Source of the DNA: Naegleria gruberi
Taxonomy: Eukaryota
Assembly (NCBI GenBank): GCA_000004985.1
Contig: GG738886.1
DNA length: 64,000 nt
Strand: one strand, 5' to 3'
Each line of letters starts with the position of its first letter. The first letter of the stretch is position 1. The notes beneath the pieces are model-generated. The model made no database searches and had not been told where the DNA came from. It saw only the letters and a program-made list of their open reading frames with translations. This document shows positions 1 to 62,089 of this stretch, piece by piece. The position numbers and the translations under genes are program-made.

Positions 1-299
1 TTTACATTAATGAGATAATTCATAACAAAACTTACAACTGAAAGTATAAAGATTCAAACAAATAATCATCTGGAAAACTAATAAATATTGGAGAGGTATT
101 TCTTTCAACGTATCTTTCATGTAAAATCAAATATGAAACCACATAAAGTCGTTTGAGATCTATTAAATCAAGGTCAGGTAGTAAGTGAGTTGCTAGTGGA
201 ATAGTATCAGGGCTCAACAAGGAAATTATTTGGTTGCAATTACAACCAATGACCAACTCTAATGCATAGTGATAACATGGTGCTATCGATTTGTCATTA

Positions 300-5406: not shown

Positions 5407-7242
5407 TTAATGTAAATGGAATGTTCCACCTCCATATGCATAATTCATTCTCTCACGCAACAGAATATCAAATTCCTCTTGACTATTGATGTGTGAAAAG
5501 TCAGCAATCAATCCATGATATTTAAGAGCTGCCATTCGATACTCTTCATCATGATTCAAATCAATAGCCAAATAAAACGCAGGGGATAATTTCAATGCCT
5601 TCATAACAAACTCTCTATTTTCTATCAGATTCTTTGGAATTTGTTGATAGGAGAATTTGTATTGATTCACTTTCATGGACGAAAGCAAAATTTCTTCATT
5701 GTCTGTAAGAAAGTTTGGAACTTGAGTGAAAACTACCTTTCTTTGCAATATCAAGTCAGCGATCTTCTGTTTGAAATCCAAATCTGAAACAAGTGATTCT
5801 GCTAGACTAATATTTGTGAAATTACCGAGGTCTATAACTTTCAAAACGAAATCCTTATCATTCTTGAAGAATGGAAAATATTCAATGCAATTCTGATTTA
5901 CCATAACACATTCCATAGCAAACTGACTGTCTTTTAACAAATCTTCCTTTGCAAATCTCATTAAAGAAGCATCATTTCGAATAACTTCCAAAATTCCCTT
6001 TCTATCATTTTGTTTGAACAACAATTCGAAATCTTTTCGTTTGTTTGGTTTTTTCACTTCCTCTTCTTCAATAAACTCATCATTCTCTTCATAATTACCC
6101 ACCATAAACATGTCATTTGAATCGTCTTCCAATTGTAAACTTTCTGATTTTTCATTTTCTTTAAAATTCTCAAAACTTTCATCCTTAATTAGTTCAGCAG
6201 GAATGTAAGGAAGAATTTTACAATCATGATTGAGTGCTTTCAATATAAATTGCTTATTATTTCTCAATTCTGATTGTTCAAGTAAGCTTGGATCATGTTG
6301 CAAACAGTTCAATAAGATTTCTTCATCATTGTTTCTAATACTTTCAGATAGATATCTGAAAGCTAAATAATTAATTTTCACTAATTGAAGGCAAAAATCT
6401 CTATCTTGCAATAAATCTATACCTTTAACATGATCCAGGAGGGTTATGTTGACTGGAGCAATTGCCAAAATTATTTCTCTATCTTTCTTCAATTCGTCTT
6501 TCATATTTGAATTCGAATAGACATTCACATTTCTTTTAATTGCTTCTAAAACCACATGTTTATCCTTAAAAAGATAAGAAAGTGAAGTGTTGTAATGCTG
6601 AACTAGATATTCTACAGCTATTTCAGGATATCTTTCGAATACAGATTCTTCCAAAGTTATTGAATCTGATTTGACAGCTGCCATAATAATTTCAGGATCA
6701 TTTTTCAAATCCTCACTAGCATACAGATAAGCCCACCCATCATTCTTCACAGCAGATAAAACAATTCTCTTGTCTGATTGACATTCCTCTGACAGAAACG
6801 CCAAATGTCTTCCTTGAAATTGAACGAGCATGTGAGCAATGTCAAGATCTGATTTAGAAGTTTCTGAGGATTGAAGGAGAGGATCGCAGAACCATTCCTT
6901 GAATGCCAGTTCGAATAATGATTTTCTGTTCAAAATAAATGGTAAATCTCTGACAAGATTCGAATATTTTGGACGAATTGATTTCATTGCTTGAATCACC
7001 AAATAATCATCAAATAAGAATTCAATAGGAAGAAAGTTGACTTGCAACAGTGAATTTGAAACTCTTCTCTCACGTTGTTCTTTAATATATTTCACTTTAG
7101 CTTCAATCCATTTCGAATAACCTTTTCCCAGTTGCGTAAACTTTTCTTTCAACTTTATCCGAAAGGAATTTTGATTATTTGATAGATAAAACGGTTCTTC
7201 CACCAGAATGAGAATGCACTGCTGCTCATGATCTTGTGACAT
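5407..7242 (-). CDS. Repeat protein of 611 aa with DUF4116-like repeats of roughly 35 aa.
   Basis: Single ORF. Recurrent motif of the form [RK]xxxEI(V/I)LxAVKxxGxALxYASxxLxNDxEI. An acidic low-complexity linker lies mid-protein. The gene at 60212..62089 is a paralogous architecture. Confidence 0.55.
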   Translation of the reverse strand: MSQDHEQQCILILVEEPFYLSNNQNSFRIKLKEKFTQLGKGYSKWIEAKVKYIKEQRERRVSNSLLQVNFLPIEFLFDDYLVIQAMKSIRPKYSNLVRDLPFILNRKSLFELAFKEWFCDPLLQSSETSKSDLDIAHMLVQFQGRHLAFLSEECQSDKRIVLSAVKNDGWAYLYASEDLKNDPEIIMAAVKSDSITLEESVFERYPEIAVEYLVQHYNTSLSYLFKDKHVVLEAIKRNVNVYSNSNMKDELKKDREIILAIAPVNITLLDHVKGIDLLQDRDFCLQLVKINYLAFRYLSESIRNNDEEILLNCLQHDPSLLEQSELRNNKQFILKALNHDCKILPYIPAELIKDESFENFKENEKSESLQLEDDSNDMFMVGNYEENDEFIEEEEVKKPNKRKDFELLFKQNDRKGILEVIRNDASLMRFAKEDLLKDSQFAMECVMVNQNCIEYFPFFKNDKDFVLKVIDLGNFTNISLAESLVSDLDFKQKIADLILQRKVVFTQVPNFLTDNEEILLSSMKVNQYKFSYQQIPKNLIENREFVMKALKLSPAFYLAIDLNHDEEYRMAALKYHGLIADFSHINSQEEFDILLRERMNYAYGGGTFHLH

Positions 7243-17805: not shown

Positions 17806-17878
17806 TGCCGACACCAGGGATCGAACCAGGGACCTTAAGATCTTCAGTCTTACGCTCTCCCAACTGAGCTATGTCGGC
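17806..17878 (-). tRNA. tRNA-Phe (anticodon GAA).
   Basis: Reverse complement reads GCCGACATAGCTCAGTTGGGAGAGCGTAAGACTGAAGATCTTAAGGTCCCTGGTTCGATCCCTGGTGTCGGCA. It has a 7-bp acceptor stem, a D-arm AGCTCAGTTGGGAGAGC, an anticodon loop CTGAAGA, a TΨC arm GGTTCGATCC, and 73 nt without encoded CCA. Confidence 0.85.
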
Positions 17879-29015: not shown

Positions 29016-29134
29016 GGCTACGGCCATATCACGATGAATGCACCTCATCCCGTCCGATTTGAGAAGTTAAGCATCGTCGAGCCACATCAGTACTGAGGTT
29101 GGAGACAACTTGGGAACCTGTGGTGCTGTAGTCT
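29016..29134 (+). rRNA. 5S ribosomal RNA gene, copy 1, 119 nt.
   Basis: GGCTACGGCCATATCACGATGAATGCACCTCATCCCGTCCGATTTGAGAAGTTAAGCATCGTCGAGCCACATCAGTACTGAGGTTGGAGACAACTTGGGAACCTGTGGTGCTGTAGTCT. It carries canonical 5S helices and a box C-like CCGTCCGAT. A T4 Pol III terminator follows immediately. Confidence 0.9.
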
Positions 29135-30320: not shown

Positions 30321-30616
30321 CATTTTACAAGTATTAAATTTTTCCAATAATCACCTTTTAAATTCAAAACCATTAAGAGTCAAATTGCATTCAATTCACG
30401 AACAACAAGTTAAAATTCATTATTGCATGTACAGCTTAAGCAATACTTACTAAACATGAACCAAATTTGTGTCCAGAAACAAAAATCGGTTCATTGAAAG
30501 AATTTCTTTGCAGAAGAACTACTTTCTAAAAATATATACATCTCAAAACAATATAAAAAGCAAGGAACTGTTTTGAATTCAAGAAAAACAATAAGAAAAA
30601 CAAGACAACAAACACA

Positions 30617-31075
30617 ATGCAATTATTTGTCAAGACACTCACTGGAAGAACTATCACTTTGGAGGTTGAATCTAATGATTCAATTGAAAACGTGAAAAGA
30701 AAAGTACAAGATAAGGAAGGAATTTCACCAGATCAACAAAGACTCATCTTTGCTGGGAAACAATTGGAAGATGGCAGAACTATTAATGATTACAACATTC
30801 AAAAAGATTCAACTCTTCATTTGGTGTTGAGATTAAGAGGAGGAATGCAACTTTTTGTAAAAACTTTAACTGGAAAGACAATCACTATTGAAATGGAATC
30901 GAATGATACTGTTGAGAATATGAAACAAAAGATATTTGATAAGGAAGGTATTCCTTCAGATCAACAACGATTGATTTATGCCGGTAAGCAATTGGAAGAT
31001 GGAAGAACTATTGGTGATTACAATCTTCAAAAGGATTCAACTGTGCATTTAGTATTGAGATTGAGAGGTGGTTAA
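30617..31075 (+). CDS. Di-ubiquitin: two head-to-tail ubiquitin-fold repeats ending in GG. Both repeats diverge from canonical ubiquitin.
   Basis: [76 protein letters not shown] plus a second repeat. About 11 and 17 substitutions against canonical ubiquitin. K48, K63 and the C-terminal GG are retained. Confidence 0.8.
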
Positions 31076-31300: not shown

Positions 31301-31419
31301 GGCTACGGCCATATCACGATGAATGCACCTCATCCCGTCCGATTTGAGAAGTTAAGCATCGTAGAGCCACATCAGTACTGAGGTTGGAGACAACTTGGGA
31401 ACCTGTGGTGCTGTAGTCT
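31301..31419 (+). rRNA. 5S ribosomal RNA gene, copy 2, 119 nt, with one substitution relative to copy 1.
   Basis: Identical to copy 1 except C>A at GTAGAGCC. About 15 nt upstream and about 30 nt downstream are also conserved between copies. T5 terminator. Confidence 0.9.
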
Positions 31420-36637: not shown

Positions 36638-39600
36638 ATGCCACAAGATAAAAGTGAACTTGACTGTGGTAAAGTACTTACTAATCAGGATAGTGGTGTT
36701 GGGTTTAGCACTATCAATACTAGTCCCCCGCATCAACAGTCGAGCGATTGTATTTCTAACATGAAGGAAAACCTAATTCCGGAGGTGAAGAATAATGATG
36801 AATTATCTGCATCATCTATTACTCTTGCTGTTCCGAACATTGATTGTGGAAGTAATACGACAAAGATGCCAACAACAAGTACTCTCGTTGTGGATGATAT
36901 CATTAAAAATAGGAGGAATATTGATGATAAAAGGTCTCTTGAAAATCGAGGAACGAGAACAGCCAGCCTGTCAATGCCAACAACTAATTATTTATTTCCA
37001 TCATCAAAAAGTAACTTAATTCCAATATTACCAAAAACTAAGGATCAGGAAAAGGAGAAAATGCAGAAAAACAAACTAACTTTTCAAAATTCGAGAAATT
37101 CTCTTTTTCAAAACTCTAACAAAACAACTTACACAAAAGTTGAAATGAACAAACAATCTAACGATAAGAGAGGACAAACGAAAATAGATCACCAACCCAA
37201 AAATCTAGAATTGCCCTCATTAGCATCAATTGTTTTAACACCAAATACTCCTAACTCGGTATCTAATGTCAATATTGAAACAGACGAATCAGAAATTAAC
37301 CCAATACTGGAATCAGTACCATTCTTTATATTTTTAAAAATTGGAATACTCAAGGAAAACTCAGAACCTAAATATTTAGAGGCTTATAGGGCTCTTTCTC
37401 AACAAAATCTATTCTTTATGACCTCTTGGTTTAGGTATTTTGGGATATATTTTGTTTTAGTATTTTTAACAATGTACAAGCTTGTCGGGATGCGAACAAT
37501 CTCTAGCTCTGTACTTTGCAACTTTTGCAGTGGAGGTTTTTAGTAATCTTTATCTGAATTATTTAACATGCTGTAAATCTCCAACTAGGGCAAGGAAGAA
37601 TGTAATTCATTTATGCAGAACAGTTCTGTCAACCTCTTATGGATTCATAATGCAAATGTATTACACTAAGCTATCCATATATATATTGACAATACTCAAA
37701 TTAATAATTTCTTGTCATATTTTTGGAGACCATCTTATCACCTCCTTAATATCTACAGTAATTTTCGTATCTGGTTCGCTTATTCCAATGATGATTTTGG
37801 GGTATCCAATAGAATCTATAGTAAGCAACGGGATAGTAATGACTTCCATAGCCATTATGTGCTTGTTCTTTTCAAAAATATATGCAGAAGAAAAAAGATA
37901 TCATTATAAACAAAGGTTTGCTTACATGCAGGAAAAGTATTTGAGCAATGAGAAAACTCACATGATTGCAAATATTTCACATGAAGCAAGGTATGTATTA
38001 CCAGTATCAGTTCGAATTAATTCAAATTCACATTTTGGAATTGTTTTAATTATTCCTATGTAGAAATCCATTGCATGGTATTATTGGAGCTTCAACAATT
38101 TTGAGACATGATATGGAAAAGAACAGTCATTCAGATAAAAGAAAAAAAAGAGGAAGAAAGAACAGCATTTTACAATCACCTTCTCATTCACCAATGAATG
38201 CAAAGAAAGGATTCTTACATGTTTCAAATGATGATGGACACTATTCGAGTGATTGTGAATCTTCATGTGGAGATTCAACAGCTGAACAACCGTATCTTGA
38301 ATTGGTGAATGATATTTATAATAATGCCAATTTGTTACTTCACATTTTCAGTACTTCACTTCAAATGACAAGTCTCGAAATGGGAAATATCAAATTGAAG
38401 AATGAACCATTCAATTTATTGGACACAATTGAATCAGTAATTTCAGTATTTTATAATATTGCAGCAGACAAGAATGTTTCACTTCACAGTTTTATTAATT
38501 TAAATTCTCTTCCAAACCAAGTGATAGGTGACCACGTTAGAGTTTCTCAAATATTAATGAACTTTGTGTCAAACTCTATCAAATATTCATCTAATGAGCA
38601 AGGAGAGAGTTCAGTAATTCTCAAGTGTGATATTTGTTCAGATGAAGAGCTCAAAAAGTTGAATGTTGAAAAAGAAAAAATAATTGAAATGTTAGACGAT
38701 AAGGAGGACATTGTTTTCGTTAAAATTGATTGTATTGATAATGGAAAAGGAATTGAAAAGGATAATATCAACAAGTTATTTAAAGCATTCCAAACTTTTG
38801 ATTTGAAATCAGCAAGTAACATGGACACAGGTGGAACAGTATTTGATCAATACTATTTGAAATCAATTTCAGGTAATACAAAAGGATCGAATGGAACGAG
38901 TTTACTATTGAGTAACAGAACAGGAGTTGGATTGAATATTAGCAAGCAACTTATTGAGAAGATGAAAGGATCTATTATAGTTAGCAGCGAAATAGGTAAA
39001 GGCACGACAATGTCTGTAATATTTCCTTTAAAGATAGCACCAACTCAATCTGCACAAAATCAAAGACTTGAAGAACTTAGTATAGATTTAGAAGATTTCA
39101 ACGTATTAATTATTGACAATGATGCACTCTTTTTGGATATAATGAAGGACTATGTTGCTCATATTTGTGCTAAAACTACGGTTACCACTGTTATAGACCC
39201 GAAAAGTATTACGGATATTGATGAGTCAAAACCATTGGTAGTAATTTATTCTGAACATCTCCATGCAGAAGTGAAACAAATCCTAAAATTGGTTTCTGTA
39301 GAAAAGATATTGATACCCATTGGATTGAGAGGAAGGACTAGAAAATATGCAACTATGAAGTATATTATCAAACCTGTAAAGGTTGACGATATGATAAGCG
39401 TATTGAACGAAAAACTCGACAAGCAAAAGAAGAAGATTAATTGTCAAAATATTATTACTCCACCTCCAGAGATAAATATCACAACTGATAATGTTCCAAC
39501 TATAGAGGTAGTAATACCAGAACCTGTACCTTCTAAACGAATACTGATAACAGATGATAATTTAATTAACAGAAAAGTGATGGAAAAGATGGTTCGATTG

Positions 39601-39915
39601 TTGGGATTTACTGAAGTTGATTGTGCATCGAATGGATTGGAATGTTTTGAAATGTACAAACAAAAACAATATTCAATCATTTTATTGGACTTGTTGATGC
39701 CAGTCATGTGTGGCAAGCAGAGTGTGAAACATATTCGAGAATTTGAAGAGAGTGAAGGAAGAAAACGAACACCAGTAATTGCCATCACTGCCAACATTTG
39801 GGAATCAGTTGATACTCTCTCACAACTTGGATTTGACTCTGTCATTTACAAACCAATCCTTATTGAAAAATTGAGGGAGGAAGTTGAACGGTTAACGCAA
39901 GAAAGCAACTCATAG
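36638..39915 (+). CDS. Hybrid histidine kinase A. It has a low-complexity N-terminus, a TM region, HisKA, HATPase_c and a C-terminal receiver domain. Exons are 36638..37990 and 38064..39915, with an apparent frameshift near 37478.
   Basis: H-box IANISHEAR|NPLHGIIGAS is split by the intron at 37991..38063. N-box LMNFVSNSIKY. G1 DNGKGI. G2 GTGVGLNISKQL...GKGTT. REC domain ILITDDNLINRK...LLDLLMP...YKP. It is colinear with the downstream paralog except for a frame change between MYK in frame 2 and TSLSGCEQ in frame 0. Confidence 0.65.
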
Positions 39916-51613: not shown

Positions 51614-54600
51614 ATGTCAATCAGACAAAAACTCTTCCCTCAGCGAAAGCGAATGTCTGGTATTTTTGAATCAGAGCACTCGCCAACTGACGTGGACAGC
51701 CTAAAGAAAAATAGACGAGTTTCGAACGCTTCAGATATGATGTTGAGTCATCCTCCAATCGATCAGCACACCTCCAACCTTCTCAACACTAGTCTCTGTA
51801 ATAATCCCTCCATGTCAGAAGATTCACTCTCTCGAAAAGTTACCATTGGATCATCGACTTGTATTGATAGTAGTACTGGTAGCAGCGAGGTTGATTCATC
51901 ACCAAATAATAATGGTAATACACTCGATATCAAGAGCAGTAGAGGGAAACAAGAGCAATCATCCACAGTGATGATCGCTACTGCTCCTCCTGCTGGTTCT
52001 GATGCGGTAAATGATGATGTTGCTTCTTCTGGCTCATCCAAAAACAGCCTAAAAAACGAAGAGAAAAATGCTTCATTGTTGCCACAACAAGACTCATCAT
52101 CAACAAGTATAAAATCGGACTCATCTTCTCTCAATAACAACAACAATAATAATAATATTAGCAATAATAGTTCAGTATCATCATCATCATCCGCCTCAGT
52201 AGTAGATAATATTGAAGACGATATGACAAAAAACAGATCACTCACATATGCTGTTGGTGATTCCAAATTTAAGGGAATTGGCCCTAATGATGTTAAATCA
52301 CCACAATCACAGAATGCTACTACAGTTTCAACCTTTCTTACCGATGAACAACCATCTACTATTTCTCCAACAACTGCTATGAATAATAGATTCCAAGGAA
52401 TCAGTTCAAAAGACGCCAAACCTACAACCACAACAAGTACTACATCCCAACCAAAGCATGCTAATCCTCCACCAATACAAACAACATCATCCGTATCAAA
52501 TAATGGTAAATCATCAACTCCTACAAATAACAAGCCAGCATCATCAAAACCAGTAGAAAAACCAAGAGTTTCTCAAGACCTTTCAAGAGAAGCAGCTTTA
52601 AAGAAGAAAGCAACAGGAAAAAGCTTAACAATGCCATCTTCATCACAAAACAAAATTGTAGTGATTGGTTGTAGAGGTATTGGTAAATCCGAAATGGTGT
52701 ACAAGTTTTTACACAATGAAATTCGTTTTTATCATCAATTAAAGAAAGATAAGGCTCATCTACTTGAAGAACTTAAAGGTACTTTGGCTTCCGAACAAAA
52801 GACTATTAACGAGAAAAAAACACAATCAGCGTCCAACCAACAGAATGCTACTACCACACCAACAAATAATTTACCATCATCATCGACATCATGCACAATA
52901 ACACCTAAAACTGAACCTTCTCCAACAAAAGTTCAAGACAATTTACCAATAGATCCAGGTGCAATAGTGGAAAATGAAATTGAGTGTGCTCTCAAACCAT
53001 CAGACTCTTTAGAAGTTAGAAAACTGAAATTACTTTTAATGAAGAAAGACCAAGAAATTAAAAAACAAAAAGAAGAAATGGAAAATACCATTCAAGAACT
53101 TTCAAGTATGTGGAAAAAGGAGAGAACAGAAAAGGTCGAACTTGAAGAAGAGTATGTCGAAAAGGAAAATGAGTTGAATCATTATATTTCAGTTGTTGAA
53201 CAGATTCATCACTTGATTAATTTGGATCCAAAGTCAGATGAAATTCCAGAAGCAATTTCTTTCAAACTTCCTGAAAATCCTAATAATGGAATTTTGAGTC
53301 CAAACAGAAAGAGAAAGACCAGTGCCCATGCTGGAGTTATTGCTGCAACACCAAAACAAAATTTATCAACACTTCCACCATCTACTCCAAATGTTGTAAC
53401 ACCAATGAATAATAGAAATAGTCACAATAATAACCACAACGACGACTTCTTTGATCTCCAAAACTTCAACCCTAAAGACCCTGTACCAGTAACACCAATG
53501 TCTTCCCAAAGAAAGGCAAGACATGTCAGAACGGAAAGTACTTTCCAAAAGCTAAGAACAAACCAATATCAAGTTGTTGCTCAAGATTTAAGAAAATCAA
53601 TTGAAGAAGATATTGACGCAGATGTTTCTGATCCAGAAACAAACAGCATTGCTTTAGCTGCAAACGAAACTGATGAGACCACGGACGAAATTAACATGTT
53701 CTTGGCAGATTTTAATAGAACCGAGGAATCCAATTTTGTATTGACAAACAATCCATCCATGAATAGAATTCAAGCTCCACAAGTGAAGAATTCCCTTTCC
53801 AATTCGGAAGATAGTGCTGGAGATGAAGATACCGAGAATGATTATTCAGAAAGTAGTGATATTACTTCTGTTTCATCAACTGCTAGTTCTAACCATTCCC
53901 TTGTTAAAGCTCAATCAACAATGGATGTAAGAGGTGATAGAGGACAACCAGTAGTAGCTAACAGTTTAATTTTACCAAATGTTGGAAAGTCAAAATCTCC
54001 AACAATTGTACAATCTACAGATTACAAGTATGACGAGAACTTGTTTGTAAAATTATTAACCCCAAGTTTCCACCTTACTGAGGGTTTGAGAAAGTTTAAT
54101 ACCGGTAAACCAAAAGATGCTCTCAAGTATCTGATAGAAAATGCAATTTTGCCTGATCCAGAAGCTGGGTTAACTGAAACTAAGGAAAAACCAGAGGCAG
54201 TAATTTCTAGATTTATGGCCATTGCTGATTCTTTGAATAAGGAAAAACTCGGAGAATTTTTGGGAGATGAAAGGAATAATGTCTATCTGGAAGAATTTGT
54301 CAGATTCCATGTTCAAGAGCTGTACAATGAAGAAAAGAAACAAGGTGATGACACTTATTTGAGCAAGTTTGATCGTGCTCTTCGTTCATTTTTCATTCAA
54401 TTCAAATTACCAAAAGAAGGACAACAAGTTACCAGAATTGCAGAGGTCTTTGCCAATGTGTATAGTGAAAATAACAAGAATGATGGAGAACTCAATGGTA
54501 ATGGTGATGCTTGCTATTTACTTGTATGTTCAATGCTCATGGTGAATACACAATTACACAATCCAATTGCGAATATCAAGTTATCGAGAGAGCAATTTGT

Positions 54601-55588
54601 AGAATTATTCTCACAATTCAAAGATATTAACATGAACTTTATTGGATCATGTTACGATACCATCGCAAGAAATGCTATGGTTCTCTATGATGAAGAAGTT
54701 GATTCTGAGGATAGAACAAATTTCGAGTCAGACGATCAGATCGATTTATTCTTCAAATGCTACAAACCAAGAGCAGCATTGCCAGCTTCAGCTAGTGATT
54801 CTCAAATAACAGTTCACAGAGCTATCAAATCTCTGAGTTTGGATGGAGACAAAGTTAAGGAATTGATGGAAAGTGCTATTACATTCTTCTTCAAAGCCAA
54901 AGTTATACATGATGGAGTCATTAATAGAATTCAAATCAAGGACTCTGATCCAAATCTCGAGTTAACAACCACAGAAACTATTACTGAGTCTGGTTTGACA
55001 ATAACAAAAGTCAAGCTCAGGGATCCAACAGAAATTAATAATGAGGCAAAGACTGGTAATTACTTTATCTGTGCTTATAGTGTTGCTGATCGCACAAGCT
55101 TTTTGATTGTTGAGCATATCATCAAAGCAATTAGAAAGGCCAAGAGAAGAGAAAGAAAGGCAGAAAAGAAGAAGAATAAGTCTTCCAAGACAAAGCCTCA
55201 ATATAGCACCTTAACTGGTTCAGTTACCGAGGAATTACTACAAATGCTCAATGGAGATGATAGTGACTACAATAATGACAAGTTTATGGTTCTTGTGGGC
55301 TGTAAAGCTGATGTTCCAGATGACCAAAGACAAGTTTCAAAGAAAGAAGGTGGTGAACTAGCTCTCAAGTACAGTATTCCATTCTTTGAAGTTTCTAATG
55401 GAGATATGTTTGGAATACGGAAAGTTTTCTTGAATGCTATCGATTCCATCAAGAGACAAAATGCTTCATACGTGGATGCAGTCAAACAAATGAATGACTT
55501 CCACAAGAGAATGAATATTGCAAAGCAAAACAAGAAAGGCCAAATAGATGTTAACTCTCTTGCTATACTGCCAAAGTGTTACATTTAA
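51614..55588 (+). CDS. Protein of 1324 aa. It has a Ser/Asn-rich N-terminus, a Ras-like G1 P-loop segment, a coiled coil, a Sec7 (ArfGEF) domain and a C-terminal Ras-like G-domain remainder.
   Basis: G1 KIVVIGCRGIGKSEMVYKF. Sec7 core FKLPKEGQQVTRIAEVFANVY and YLLVCSMLMVNTQLHNP. The C-terminus YFICAYSVADRTSFLIVEHIIKAIRKAK...KFMVLVGCKADVPDD...LALKYSIPFFEVSNGDMFGIRKVFLNAIDSIKRQ is colinear with Ras beta4 through alpha5, that is G4 NKxD and G5 ETSAK. Confidence 0.7.
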   Translation: MSIRQKLFPQRKRMSGIFESEHSPTDVDSLKKNRRVSNASDMMLSHPPIDQHTSNLLNTSLCNNPSMSEDSLSRKVTIGSSTCIDSSTGSSEVDSSPNNNGNTLDIKSSRGKQEQSSTVMIATAPPAGSDAVNDDVASSGSSKNSLKNEEKNASLLPQQDSSSTSIKSDSSSLNNNNNNNNISNNSSVSSSSSASVVDNIEDDMTKNRSLTYAVGDSKFKGIGPNDVKSPQSQNATTVSTFLTDEQPSTISPTTAMNNRFQGISSKDAKPTTTTSTTSQPKHANPPPIQTTSSVSNNGKSSTPTNNKPASSKPVEKPRVSQDLSREAALKKKATGKSLTMPSSSQNKIVVIGCRGIGKSEMVYKFLHNEIRFYHQLKKDKAHLLEELKGTLASEQKTINEKKTQSASNQQNATTTPTNNLPSSSTSCTITPKTEPSPTKVQDNLPIDPGAIVENEIECALKPSDSLEVRKLKLLLMKKDQEIKKQKEEMENTIQELSSMWKKERTEKVELEEEYVEKENELNHYISVVEQIHHLINLDPKSDEIPEAISFKLPENPNNGILSPNRKRKTSAHAGVIAATPKQNLSTLPPSTPNVVTPMNNRNSHNNNHNDDFFDLQNFNPKDPVPVTPMSSQRKARHVRTESTFQKLRTNQYQVVAQDLRKSIEEDIDADVSDPETNSIALAANETDETTDEINMFLADFNRTEESNFVLTNNPSMNRIQAPQVKNSLSNSEDSAGDEDTENDYSESSDITSVSSTASSNHSLVKAQSTMDVRGDRGQPVVANSLILPNVGKSKSPTIVQSTDYKYDENLFVKLLTPSFHLTEGLRKFNTGKPKDALKYLIENAILPDPEAGLTETKEKPEAVISRFMAIADSLNKEKLGEFLGDERNNVYLEEFVRFHVQELYNEEKKQGDDTYLSKFDRALRSFFIQFKLPKEGQQVTRIAEVFANVYSENNKNDGELNGNGDACYLLVCSMLMVNTQLHNPIANIKLSREQFVELFSQFKDINMNFIGSCYDTIARNAMVLYDEEVDSEDRTNFESDDQIDLFFKCYKPRAALPASASDSQITVHRAIKSLSLDGDKVKELMESAITFFFKAKVIHDGVINRIQIKDSDPNLELTTTETITESGLTITKVKLRDPTEINNEAKTGNYFICAYSVADRTSFLIVEHIIKAIRKAKRRERKAEKKKNKSSKTKPQYSTLTGSVTEELLQMLNGDDSDYNNDKFMVLVGCKADVPDDQRQVSKKEGGELALKYSIPFFEVSNGDMFGIRKVFLNAIDSIKRQNASYVDAVKQMNDFHKRMNIAKQNKKGQIDVNSLAILPKCYI

Positions 55589-57390: not shown

Positions 57391-59844
57391 ATGCACAAAC
57401 AGATATCTTTATTCTTGTTAGTTTTATTCTTGCTGGTTTCTTCAGCATCATTCAAACATACCCATTTCACAAAGGACATGATTGACTCTCTCAATCAAGA
57501 TCCATCTGTCAAATGGGAAGCTGCAAATTATGACCAATTTGCAGGTAAATCATTTGCTGAATTGAGAAAATTATTAGGTGGTAAGAGAGGTGAAGAAAGC
57601 TCGAGTGAAGAAGCAAGATATAATACCAGAGATGTTAAATCGACTGTTGCCATTCCTGATACTTTTGATTCTAGAACTAAATGGCCACAATGTATTCATG
57701 GTATTAGAAATCAAGGTGTAAGTAATATTCATCCATAGCATGTTGTTTAATATTGTAAAAAAAGCAATGTGGATCATGCTGGGCTTTCGCAAGTAAGTAT
57801 TAAGTTTTCCTCTGTTGTTGCTCATCTTTGACAACAATTATTACAACAAAATATGATGTGAATATTGACATGAATAACATGAAAATAATAGCTACTGGTG
57901 TTTTCTCTGATCGTTTGTGTATTACTACTAACAACGTTTCAAATGTTGTTATCAGTCCTGAAGTAAGTTAATGTAAGCTAACAATAACATAACATTCGTC
58001 CAGTTTCTTATTGAATGCGACAAGACCAGTTTTGCATGTCAAGGCGGTTATGGTTATTATTCATGGAAATTCTTCATGAATACTGGTATCCCATTAGAAT
58101 CCTGTGTTCCATACACTAAAGATTCCCTTGTTTATGGTAACACCACCAACGCTCAATGTAGATCAACTTGTACTGATGGTAGTCCACTTAAATTATACAA
58201 GGCTGCTAGTGCTTATTATATTTACTCTCCAATTACCAATTATCAAACTGAAATTATGACTAATGGACCAGTTGAAGCTGATTTTGATGTGTAAGTTTTC
58301 TAATTTTAGTAATGTGAAATTTTAATTTTTTTTAGATATTCTGATTTTTATTCATATAAATCTGGTATTTATCAAAAGACAGCAGGAAGTACCTATGTTG
58401 GTGGACATGCTGTTAAGGTTCTTGGATGGGCTTCTGATTCTAATGGAACTCCTTATTGGATTGCTCAAAATCAGGTAAGTTTCGAATAGAAATTAACAAT
58501 TAATAGAAATAATTTAAAACACAATAATAGTGGGGAACATCATGGGGTATGGGAGGCTATGTATGTTTTTAATTTGATTTGAAAAATTAATTAACTTTTT
58601 CTAGTTGTAAGTAATTTGTAATTTACTTTTTTGTAAATTTATTATCAACCTTAACAGTTATATTTATAGAGGAAATTCTACTTTGAATTGTAAATTTGAT
58701 AATTACATGATTGCTGGAACTGTCTCACCACCAACATGTTATGGTAAAGCTCAAAGTGATTCTTCAGTTTGTAATGGACATGGTCAATGTGTTGGACCAG
58801 ATACTTGTTCATGCTCAAGTGGATGGGGTGGCACTTATTGTAATATTACCAGTTGTAATGGAATTGTTTTGACTGATTCATCAGTTTGTAGTGGTCATGG
58901 CCAATGTGTTTCTGCTGAAAATTGTGTTTGTAATAGGTAGGTTTTTTCACTTGTTGTGTGATTTTTTTAACACAATTGGTTGAAGTGGTTGGAGTGGAAC
59001 TTATTGTGCTGAAACTACCTGTAATGGTATTTCATCTGCCAATTCATCTGTCTGTAGTGGACATGGTACATGTACTACCAAGGATACTTGTACATGTAAG
59101 ACTGGTTATGGAGATCAATATTGTCAATCATTCATTTGTTATGGATTGACTGGTTCCAATGCTGCCGTTTGTTCTGGACATGGTACATGTTCTGCTTATA
59201 ATACTTGTAAATGTAATACTGGATACTCTGGTTCTCAATGTCAAAACTATACCTGTAATGCCATTGCCCAAAATAATGCCAATGTCTGTTCAGGACATGG
59301 TTCTTGTGTTGATTACAATACTTGTAAATGTTCAGGTGGATACACAGGTACTTATTGCTCACAAGTTGCTTGTAATGGAATTCTTCCAACAGATTCATCT
59401 GTTTGTAGTGGCCGTGGTAAATGTGTTGGTCCAAACAATTGCACATGTACCAACTCAACTCAGTATGGAGGTGAATTCTGTCAAGTTCCAAAATGTGGTG
59501 GAATTTTGGCAACAGATTCTTCAGTTTGTGGTGGAAAGACCAATTATGTTTGCTCTGGTGTAAATACTTGTACATGTAAGACTGGATATACTGGAGCTAA
59601 TTGTAACTCATTCTCATGTTTTGGAATTGATTCCAACTCAACAAGTGTCTGTGCAGGAAGCGGAAAGTGTGTTGCATTGGATACTTGTCAATGCACTGAT
59701 GGAACTTCAGGCAATTGTACTTCCTCAACTAGTACAGATTCCAGCACAAGACAATCACATGCCTCTAATCAATATGGCCAAACCATGTGGATCCAAATTG
59801 TATTGTGTACTGTCTTGTTATGGATTGGAGCTATTGTTTTTTAA
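57391..59844 (+). CDS. Cathepsin-B-like papain-family (C1) cysteine protease. It has a signal peptide, at least six short exons for the protease, about eight tenascin-type EGF-like Cys repeats, a Ser/Thr stalk and a C-terminal hydrophobic GPI-signal/TM tail. One junction, 58561..58657, is unresolved.
   Basis: Signal MHKQISLFLLVLFLLVSSASF. Protease exons: 57391..57717; 57765..57792 encoding QCGSCWAFA; 57892..57962; 58004..58290 encoding GGYGYYSWKFF; 58336..58474 encoding GGHAVKVLGW...YWIAQNQ; 58531..58560 encoding WGTSWGMGGY. Then YIYRGNSTLNCKFDNYMIAG from 58658 onward, repeats of CxGHGxC(x5)CxCxxGYxGxxC, an intron at 58939..58988, and an end at MWIQIVLCTVLLWIGAIVF*. Confidence 0.55.
58690..59720 (+). 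repeat. Coding tandem array of about eight copies of a unit of roughly 96 bp (about 32 aa) of EGF-like modules.
   Basis: Recurrent module T-C-N-G-I-x-x-T-D-S-S-V-C-S-G-H-G-x-C-V-x(5)-C-x-C-x-x-G-[YW]-x-G-x-x-C. Nucleotide-level periodicity is visible, for example repeated gtttgtagtggncatggtnaatgtgtt. Confidence 0.6.
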
Positions 59845-60211: not shown

Positions 60212-62089
60212 TTAAAAATCATTACACAATTTCAATATTTCCTTATCATTTCTCAAATCAATGGATGCATATTTCAGTGCACTCTTATTTTGTTTGACTG
60301 CAAATGAAACTATTCCTCTATCACTTCTGAGTTTTAAACACATTTCACGTAACAGATTGCCATCTCTTTTCACAACTCGAATCACAAATACTCTATCTGA
60401 GACCTTTAATTTACCAGCACTGTAGAATGCATTAATAGCATCAGTTTTTAACGCTTCCATCAAAATCTCTCTATCTATTTGATGTTTTCTTGGAAAATTT
60501 GGCAAATAATTCCCAGATTGTTTGACTAGTTTCTGAAAGCAAAATAGTCTGTCATTAATCAATCTTTTAGATATCTGACTAAAATTCAACATGACGTTTC
60601 AGCAGCTTTGAGAACAATTTGTTCATCATCCCAAAACTCTGCTGTGCAAGAATTGATTGCATCTCCATCTTGTGTGACTGCAGCCAAAACTATTTCTCTA
60701 TCTGTTTGAAATTGTTCACCAACATAATACAATATCTCACCACATCTTGTTACAGCTTGTAATACAAATTCTCTGTCTTGTTTAAATTCATTTGGGATTG
60801 CATTCATTGCTTCGTACAGATTAAAACATCCTGAGGATATTTTAATTGATTCCAATAATACCTCTCTGTCGTGTGTGAATTGATCTGGAATATTCTCCAA
60901 AGCAAAACCAGTCTTTGCAAATGATTGGATGAATTCAATGTCATTTCTCAATCTATCAGAAATATATGTAATGGCCAAACCAGAAGATTTGAGTGCCAAC
61001 TCAGCAATTTCCTTGTCATCTCTCAATTCAGTTGATGCAAATTGGAAACAGGACCAATTTTTCATAACAAGCATTTTCACAAATTCCTTATCATTTTTCA
61101 ATTCATCAGATGCGTGTTGAAAAGCTTGTGGATTTTGTTGAATAGCTTCCATAACAATCTCTCTATCATTTCTCAATTCCTTACACGCATATTCTAGTGC
61201 TTTCACACCGTCCAAATTTGATATTGTGAGCAGAAACTCTCTATCATTCGTAAATGCCCTACTTGCACTGTTAATTCTGGCAAGAGATTTTGAAAATGCT
61301 TTAAAAATCACATCTCTATCATTTCTCAATAATTGGGATGATTGAAAATATGCATTTGGCTTTGATTCTAGAGCTAGTAAGACAATTTCCTTATTATTTT
61401 GCAATTCTTTGGACGCAAACTCTAGGGCATCACCATTTTCTTGTACAGCAGTTCTAACTATTTCAATATCATTTCTAAATGTTTCAGATACAAATTTAAG
61501 AATTGGTCCCCAAGTACTAACAGCTGTCATTACAATTTCCCTGTTTCTTTTCAATTCTTCAGATGCGTACGAAAGAAAATGACCCTTATGTTGCACAGAA
61601 GTTTTTACAATTTCAAAATCATTTCTCAATTCTTCTGAGGCACATCTGATGCTTCCATTTTCCTTGACAGCTGCCATGACAATTTCTCTATCATTTCTGA
61701 AAACATCATCCACATAATTGAGTGTCTCAAGACCACTATACTCTGTTGTAGTCAAAACAAACGATCTATCCTTCCACAATCCAAATTTTCTAGCCAAAAT
61801 ATCAAATTTATCACAAGGCAAATCGAATATTTTGTCATGAATAAAAGTTCGATCTCTAATCAATCAATATTGGAAAATTAATTGGTTGATTTTCATTGTT
61901 AAATTCTTCTCCATGATCAAAAAACTCCCAAACAGAATCATCACTTCTCCCGAAACAATATTCAAGTATTGGTTTTAAAATGGTGTCGTGTTTGTCATTG
62001 GGTGGAATGTCTGCAATTTTTGTGGAGAGTAATTGGGAAGAGAGGGACAAATCTAAAAAACACTGATGGTTATTCTTCATCATTGGCAT
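60212..62089 (-). CDS. DUF4116-like repeat protein with an N-terminal F-box-like exon. Exon 1 is about 62089..61930, followed by an intron of about 69 nt, then exon 2 from about 61859 down to 60586. A further frame break at 60586..60592 continues into a 126-aa repeat-containing ORF.
   Basis: About nine repeats of [FL]xNDxEIVxxAVxxNGxALxYAS. The proposed intron GTTTTTTGATC...GATTGATTAG joins ...SDDSVWE to DRTFIHDKIF in frame. The ORF at 60212..60592 carries the same repeat but sits in a different frame, overlapping by 7 nt. Confidence 0.45.

Follow-up and report, generated by a model that had tools for sequence, protein, structure and literature searches.

A stretch of 64,000 nucleotides (nt) of Naegleria gruberi contig GG738886.1 (assembly GCA_000004985.1), referred to below as the window, encodes at positions 57391-59844 (+) a protein of 673 amino acids (aa) in which a cysteine protease is joined to an EGF-like stalk. 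From its N-terminus onwards, the spliced product comprises a signal peptide, a short propeptide, a C1 peptidase of cathepsin-B-like type, eight EGF modules, a Ser/Thr-rich linker and a 19-residue hydrophobic tail. The gene, NAEGRDRAFT_70754, probably consists of nine exons, including a candidate micro-exon of 2 nt, and its product is likely to be a zymogen of the secretory pathway. A more far-reaching interpretation, which is put forward tentatively and judged a little less probable than its negation, would be that N. gruberi constitutively splices this 2-nt exon between introns of 44 and 51 nt, that the product is a glycosylphosphatidylinositol (GPI)-anchored, stalked endopeptidase for contact digestion at the cell surface or the food cup, and that the C1-EGF-anchor design arose independently in at least three protist lineages.

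The coding sequence starts with an ATG at 57391 and ends with a TAA stop at 59842-59844. The first six protease exons (327, 28, 71, 287, 139 and 30 nt) are separated by GT..AG introns of 41-99 nt, in line with the proposal of an earlier note, made from the sequence of the window alone, that a C1 peptidase bearing a signal peptide is encoded here by at least six short exons; six exons and a Pfam match were found at that location. The six ordinary introns of the gene measure 47, 99, 41, 45, 56 and 49 nt, and five of them, together with both sub-introns that we propose for the exon 6/7 junction, belong to a size class of 41-56 nt. The donors are GTAAGT (five), GTATGT (one) and GTAGGT (one). Apart from the question of the reading frame at the exon 6/7 junction, the 2 kb of coding sequence carry no disabling change. 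The parts of the gene are as follows.

57391..57717 (+): exon 1; start codon, signal peptide at aa 1-20 (MHKQISLFLLVLFLLVSSAS), propeptide at about aa 21-87 and the start of the mature enzyme, including Gln108 of the oxyanion hole
57765..57792 (+): exon 2, 28 nt; QCGSCWAF, with the catalytic Cys114 at 57777-57779, an invariant alignment column
57892..57962 (+): exon 3, 71 nt; aligned without gaps to cathepsin B over both junctions
58004..58290 (+): exon 4, 287 nt; covers the region of the cathepsin B occluding loop, which is about 10 residues shorter here and lacks His-His
58336..58474 (+): exon 5, 139 nt; catalytic His262 (58406-58408) and Asn283 (58469-58471), invariant columns
58531..58560 (+): exon 6, 30 nt; WGTSWGMGGY, ending in phase 0 before the donor gtatgt
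58605..58606 (+): candidate micro-exon TT, 2 nt; with T58658 it would form TTT, the codon of Phe295
58658..58936 (+): exon 7, 279 nt; the last 21 peptidase residues (YIYRGNSTLNCKFDNYMIAGT), followed in the same frame by EGF module 1 and the greater part of module 2
58986..59844 (+): exon 8, 859 nt; the remainder of EGF module 2 and modules 3-8 (to 59718)
59719-59784 (+): Ser/Thr-rich linker, within exon 8
59785-59841 (+): C-terminal hydrophobic anchor signal, within exon 8

The protease part matches the Pfam family Peptidase_C1 (PF00112) at aa 88-314 with E = 2.8e-53, covering profile positions 1-218 of 220. Q108, C114, H262 and N283 fall on invariant columns of a six-sequence alignment, A1, that comprises this protein, human cathepsin B, two unfused protist enzymes and two other fusion proteins. 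Among solved structures, the 25 best matches, with E = 3e-52 to 1e-41, all belong to the cathepsin B family (cathepsin B, procathepsin B and cathepsin-B-like peptidases); DPP1 (1.7e-36) and cathepsin H (5e-29) score lower. The peptide that follows the last unambiguous protease exon, YIYRGNSTLNCKFDNYMIAG, which the earlier note had assigned to the C-terminal strands of papain-family enzymes, aligns with solved cathepsin B structures as proposed, with just a two-residue insertion, Thr-Leu, before the conserved Cys. Structures of procathepsin B align from aa 22-30, and the Pfam propeptide family Propeptide_C1 (PF08127) matches weakly at aa 28-66 (19 bits, under the gathering score of 32.7).

With cathepsin B (MEROPS C01.060; procathepsin B structures PDB 5FPW, 4I04 for Schistosoma mansoni SmCB1 and 1PBH for the human enzyme) this protein shares the papain fold, the Gln/Cys/His/Asn catalytic residues and a putative short propeptide; it differs from cathepsin B in the occluding-loop region, which in both the structure and the A1 alignments is about 10 residues shorter and has no His110-His111 pair, and in a Tyr at the position of cathepsin B Glu245. 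Since the occluding loop and the His-His pair are missing, the protein is filed as cathepsin-B-like rather than as a typical cathepsin B, and for the same reason it should be an endopeptidase and not the dipeptidyl-carboxypeptidase typical of cathepsin B. The Tyr in place of Glu245 presumably confers a preference for hydrophobic P2 residues. A further difference lies in the C-terminal extension of 357 residues, made up of the EGF stalk, the linker and the anchor, whereas cathepsin B stops a few residues past the domain. The closest catalytic domains are those of unfused enzymes from protist metatranscriptomes (P0026, P0028, P0001-P0006 and others; 51-54% identity); the occluding loop is likewise missing in P0001 and P0026, the two that were checked. 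These unfused protist proteins end 2-7 residues past the domain, and none of them carries an EGF stalk or an anchor. Many protist homologues of the cathepsin-B-like type (P0001-P0006, P0025, P0029, P0041, P0054 and others) are multi-domain proteins in metatranscriptomes. Some carry two proteases in tandem (about 600 aa); others are fused to ML (PF02221) or saposin (PF03489/PF05184) domains, which for the most part precede the protease.

The earlier note had the protease run in frame into the EGF array; the two parts do belong to one gene, but they cannot be joined by an ordinary intron, as the frames do not match where exons 6 and 7 meet. The last codon of exon 6 is complete (phase 0; ..GGC TAT/gtatgt), exon 7 opens with the third base of a codon (aacag/T TAT ATT) and requires two bases ahead of it, and reading on beyond exon 6 gives ..GGYVCF followed by a stop. 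When all single- and double-intron solutions of the GT/GC..AG type were enumerated, the sole canonical gapless solution was a TT exon at 58605-58606 between two introns, intron 6a (58561-58604, 44 nt, gtatgt..ttctag) and intron 6b (58607-58657, 51 nt, gtaagt..aacag). The spliced junction predicted by this model is ..GGAGGCTAT-TT-TTATATTTATAGAGG.., and the product reads GGY-F-YIYRG (GGYFYIYRG). Other GT/GC..AG solutions were ruled out by the loss or addition of residues in the conserved GYFxIxRG strand, and introns of the AT..AG or GT..AC type, which would place Val or Ser at this position, were rejected as non-canonical and a worse fit to the invariant Phe. The Phe295 column is invariant in alignment A1, solved cathepsin B structures align without gaps over the junction and up to aa 316-317, and Phe295 is also present in the public model XP_002674054.1.

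The sequence around the two bases is consistent with splicing at this site. Canonical splice sites flank the candidate exon directly (ttctag/TT/gtaagt), and an AG-nn-GTAAGT string arises in 0.04% of dinucleotide shuffles of the 97-nt interval between exons 6 and 7. GTAAGT occurs 24 times in the whole window (both strands), six times within the gene on the (+) strand, and all six of these lie at donor positions of the model. Sub-introns 6a and 6b are of modal intron size, each contains a yTnAy motif, and a comparison of the two revealed no recognisable duplication of one another. A second string of this kind, tttcag/TT/gtaagt, is located at window positions 30-40 (-), at the window edge, and may be an ordinary exon end.

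Several points weigh against the micro-exon: its splicing and the expression of the gene are deduced at the level of the sequence, an exon of 2 nt is exceptional in size, and a loss of 2 nt in the T run that opens exon 7 (TTTT to TT) predicts an identical protein. The last point is the core of an explanation that dispenses with the micro-exon and that we regard as improbable: the interval 58561-58657 would be a single intron of 97 nt, and the reference would lack two T's at the start of exon 7, such that TTTTATATT appears as TTATATT, whether by misassembly or by a real frameshift, in which case this allele would be a pseudogene, the internal ctag/TT/gtaagt being a coincidence. TT restored at 58658 would likewise yield GGY-F-YIYRG, and the resulting intron would resemble intron 2 (99 nt); moreover, exons of 1-2 nt are very rare, the few validated ones being in plants (PMC4674806, PMC8831610). 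The coincidence would, however, have to place AG-nn-GTAAGT at the right position, which just 0.04% of shuffles achieve, in a gene where every other GTAAGT on the (+) strand is a donor used by the model, and it would have to yield two sub-introns that both fall within the modal 41-56 nt and both have their own yTnAy motif. A decayed allele also fits poorly with the intact remainder of the 2 kb of coding sequence and with the selection on the protease exons described next.

An independent strain is represented by an ENA metagenome contig of 1019 nt (L005), which was reached via a 72-aa protein fragment, P0434, and matches window positions 57600-58659. All six differences between this contig and the exons of the window are synonymous third-position changes (P about 1e-4, on the basis that 22% of possible substitutions are synonymous), while the introns differ by seven substitutions and four indel events (8, 51, 1 and 3 nt), all of the indels being intronic. 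Purifying selection thus acts on the protease exons in the frames of the model, a result that speaks against a pseudogene in decay. The ctag/TT/gtaagt string and the entire intron 6b are identical in the contig, and intron 6a has a 3-nt insertion there. To the credit of the single-intron explanation, the contig does not extend beyond 58659, and a start of exon 7 with TT would look the same in it as one with TTTT. Intron 2 (57793-57891) is 99 nt long in the window and about 50 nt shorter in the contig, a 51-nt indel between near-identical strains.

Precedents for the proposed 2-nt exon come from plants, where validated 1-nt exons in APC11 and VPS55 demonstrate that splicing of such exons is feasible and that they are usually overlooked by annotation (PMC4674806, PMC8831610). 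Like those constitutive exons, the candidate described here is ultra-short and internal, has on both sides canonical introns whose GTRAGT donors are strong, and is required for the reading frame. The plant exons were validated by reverse transcription PCR and RNA-seq (PMC4674806, PMC8831610); the candidate measures 2 nt, is bounded by introns of 44 and 51 nt, belongs to a heterolobosean and is predicted computationally. No literature on micro-exons in Naegleria was found.

The earlier note had further argued that a single gene encodes the protease, the EGF stalk and a GPI-type C-terminal signal, and this view has been strengthened by the continuity of exon 7, by two other fusion proteins in uninterrupted open reading frames (ORFs; P0058 and P0024, described below), by a tail that fits simple GPI rules and by the public record. 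An exact-sequence look-up showed that the spliced 673-aa model is identical, residue for residue, to XP_002674054.1 (EFC41310.1, UniProt D2VP73), which GenBank labels "predicted protein [Naegleria gruberi]". The sequence has therefore been public, and uncharacterised, since the annotation of the N. gruberi genome; what is new is the domain combination within known kinds, namely cathepsin-B-like peptidases, membrane-anchored cysteine peptidases of amoebae and EGF-stalk proteins of Naegleria. The same look-up disposed of the idea that the locus was unannotated, which had been suggested by the lack of any N. gruberi match above 50% identity. The weight of the public model is reduced by the fact that it may stem from a homology-guided predictor rather than from cDNA. 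Our search of the literature returned no description of this protein or of any C1-EGF fusion.

Two separate products, a secreted protease that ends in ..WGMGGYVCF and a stop by read-through of 58561-58572 and an EGF protein that starts from an internal Met (MIAGTV..), would be a very improbable alternative. The read-through ORF exists, and the frames do not join via a simple intron. Such a protease would, on the other hand, be truncated before the last beta-strands of the papain fold, and its Pfam match would end near profile position 197 of 220; the match extends over positions 1-218 only when exon 7 is joined, and the missing strands are encoded directly upstream of EGF module 1 in the same frame. 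The EGF product would have no signal peptide in spite of 48 disulfide cysteines and a C-terminal anchor signal: the earlier note had remarked that the array has no signal peptide of its own, and this holds, because the hydropathy profile has just two hydrophobic segments, one at aa 1-20 and one formed by the 19 C-terminal residues. In a collection of 15 billion proteins, exact look-up found no record of a protease-only or an EGF-only product, whereas the fusion is present; P0058 and P0024 carry the same fusion in single ORFs.

In the stalk of the fusion protein, a pattern scan detected eight six-cysteine EGF modules that repeat about every 39 aa over aa 322-632, and Pfam EGF profiles match the stalk several times (EGF_2, 5e-26; EGF_Teneurin, 5e-18), so that the count of about eight tenascin-type modules given in the earlier note is borne out. 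At the DNA level the modules show no recent tandem repeat. Composition and hydropathy likewise agree with its description of a Ser/Thr-rich segment followed by a terminal hydrophobic stretch: aa 621-654 are 47% Ser/Thr, and the last 19 residues (aa 655-673; MWIQIVLCTVLLWIGAIVF) are hydrophobic, with a mean Kyte-Doolittle value of 2.35. The GPI-signal character that had been ascribed to this tail is supported under simple rules, namely a signal peptide, a hydrophobic end without a tail behind it, small residues at the omega and omega+2 positions and, after these, 5-10 polar residues as a spacer. The candidate omega site is Ser645-His-Ala, followed by a 7-residue spacer, SNQYGQT, with Ala647-Ser-Asn as an alternative; this assignment uses a simple rule of our own and not a trained predictor. 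GPI anchoring is thus predicted from the fit of the tail to these rules.

A transmembrane anchor is an equally good reading of the 19-residue segment, and the enzyme may act in endolysosomes instead of at the cell surface, since zymogens of cathepsin B normally mature and work at acidic pH. Both points count against a GPI-anchored surface enzyme, as does P0024, which has a transmembrane helix and a cytoplasmic tail instead. Combined, they amount to an alternative that we consider unlikely, though less so than the loss of two T's discussed above: the same fusion without GPI, a type I transmembrane protein whose anchor has no tail and which serves as a digestive hydrolase in acidic phagosomes or lysosomes. 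At a mean Kyte-Doolittle value of 2.35, the 19 residues would suffice to cross a bilayer. Several Naegleria EGF proteins (P0116, P0011, P0088) have a transmembrane helix with a short tail behind it, and P0024 has a helix and a tail too; acidic-pH maturation is typical of the cathepsin B family. GPI attachment is favoured over this alternative by the fact that nothing follows the hydrophobic stretch, by the small residues S-H-A placed 7 residues upstream of it, as for an omega site, and by the tail-less ending that is also seen in P0058 and in the EGF proteins P0039 of N. gruberi and P0096 of N. lovaniensis, which have similar terminal hydrophobic stretches. Beyond a passing remark, no literature on the GPI machinery of Naegleria was found.

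A search for C1 peptidase plus EGF fusions, which the earlier note had recommended, identified two, both with the same architecture in uninterrupted ORFs. P0058, from an ENA metagenome contig, is 455 aa long and hydrophobic at its very end, and its junction reads ..YMVCPNVPPSCFGK.., which is similar to ..YMIAGTVSPPTCYGK.. of the N. gruberi protein. P0024, from the Logan assembly of DRR658064, is 846 aa long and has a transmembrane helix with a long basic cytoplasmic tail; its gene call begins 24 codons late, and an upstream in-frame ATG (L002:168-240) gives MSKFVLVLLFVFLSFQ.., a signal peptide. Like the N. gruberi protein, both consist of a signal peptide, a C1 peptidase, tenascin/teneurin-type EGF modules and a C-terminal membrane anchor. 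The catalytic domain of the N. gruberi protein is 34-37% identical to those of P0058 and P0024, which are 27% identical to each other. As each fusion has a catalytic domain that shares more identity with unfused enzymes than with its fused counterparts, the C1-EGF-anchor design probably arose more than once, independently.

Further searches did not extend this set. A homology search centred on the junction returned plain cathepsin B proteins only, and a search of representatives with P0058, which was swamped by giant EGF proteins, gave no new fusion; of its matches that start in or near the protease part, P0317 consists of repeated C1 domains without EGF modules and the others have EGF modules without a protease. 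Scans of metagenomes for the pattern of the N-terminal peptide of exon 7 and of related loci yielded no instance, and exact look-ups with the ORFs of exon 7 and exon 8 gave no match. The clustered homology search had overlooked even the full-length N. gruberi protein, whose 90% cluster is represented by the 72-aa metagenome ORF fragment P0434, and its negatives need caution for intron-rich eukaryotic genes. Owing to this artefact, only lower bounds are given by the rarity of C1 plus EGF fusions and by the seeming lack of orthologues in other species of Naegleria. In N. fowleri, no counterpart locus was found beside the syntenic ABC1 gene, where synteny is broken immediately, and this speaks against the nine-exon zymogen gene proposed at the outset.

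The closest EGF arrays, of the same type and at 35-48% identity, are found in EGF-stalk surface proteins of Naegleria and Acrasis (P0039 and P0116 of N. gruberi, P0011 of N. fowleri and P0096 of N. lovaniensis). At their heads these proteins have modules of lectin-like, NHL, jacalin, NPCBM, arylesterase or kinase type instead of a protease; behind the array comes a terminal hydrophobic stretch in some and a transmembrane helix with a tail in others. Judged by these sequences, the EGF array behaves as a general stalk-and-anchor cassette. The EhCP-B proteins of Entamoeba histolytica, papain-family (C1A) pre-pro-enzymes with C-terminal hydrophobic stretches that are predicted GPI signals or transmembrane anchors (PMC1913524), differ from the Naegleria protein in that they are cathepsin-L-like, have no EGF stalk and belong to an unrelated lineage.

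The window around the gene is rich in AT (about 33% GC) and densely packed with genes, most of its ORFs being long. The adjoining ABC1 kinase ORF matches an N. gruberi protein at 100% identity, the N. fowleri protein at 81% and the Willaertia protein at 59%, and the adjoining RGS and Sec7 genes match N. gruberi entries exactly. The Sec7 gene, 51614-55588 (+), is NAEGRDRAFT_80719 and encodes 1324 aa with a Sec7 (Arf-GEF) domain and a C-terminal partial domain of a Ras-family GTPase. Two proteins that consist nearly entirely of DUF4116 repeats are encoded at 5407-7242 (-), where 5 copies are matched (E = 2e-53), and at 60586-61863 (-), where 9 are matched (E = 4e-111); one of them lies immediately downstream of the cathepsin-EGF gene. 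An ORF at 38071-39915 (+) combines HATPase_c and response-regulator receiver domains and resembles a hybrid histidine kinase, here in a eukaryote. Two 5S rRNA genes, at 29016-29134 and 31301-31419 (+), with Rfam scores of 105-106 bits, are dispersed among protein-coding genes and not part of an rDNA array; each lies within a 162-nt direct repeat (94% identical, spacing 2285 nt), and between them, at 30616-31071, there are two tandem copies of a 228-nt unit that are 77% identical. A single tRNA-Phe (GAA) gene is located at 17806-17878 (-).

From the sequence we infer the splicing of the micro-exon, the attachment of GPI and the location, activity and role of the protein, and the following sequence of events is proposed on that basis. 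The product would enter the endoplasmic reticulum via its signal peptide, and the EGF modules would form their disulfides; the terminal 19-residue segment would be either exchanged for a GPI anchor, with Ser645 as the candidate omega residue, or kept as a tail-less membrane anchor, and the Ser/Thr-rich spacer would probably be O-glycosylated. Removal of the propeptide would then leave an active protease held on a rigid EGF stalk tens of nanometres above the membrane, which may be the plasma membrane or the phagosomal and food-cup membranes derived from it. Its role would probably be the contact-dependent digestion of the surfaces of prey or substrate, with an enzyme that is not lost to the water. 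A role in adhesion or invasion, as raised in the earlier note, is speculation.

If confirmed, the 2-nt exon would be among the shortest known and, as far as could be found, the first to be reported outside plants and animals. The candidate, the most unusual element of the gene, bears on the question of the smallest exon that the spliceosome can handle under intron definition in an organism with short introns, and on the ways in which such exons derail annotation. Secreted cathepsin B enzymes are studied as virulence factors of Naegleria fowleri, and N. gruberi itself is non-pathogenic; a protease fixed to the membrane on a stalk would represent a different way of delivering proteolysis, local, contact-dependent and undiluted, and the recurrence of the C1-EGF-anchor design in protists, probably by independent origins, suggests that this way of delivery is useful.

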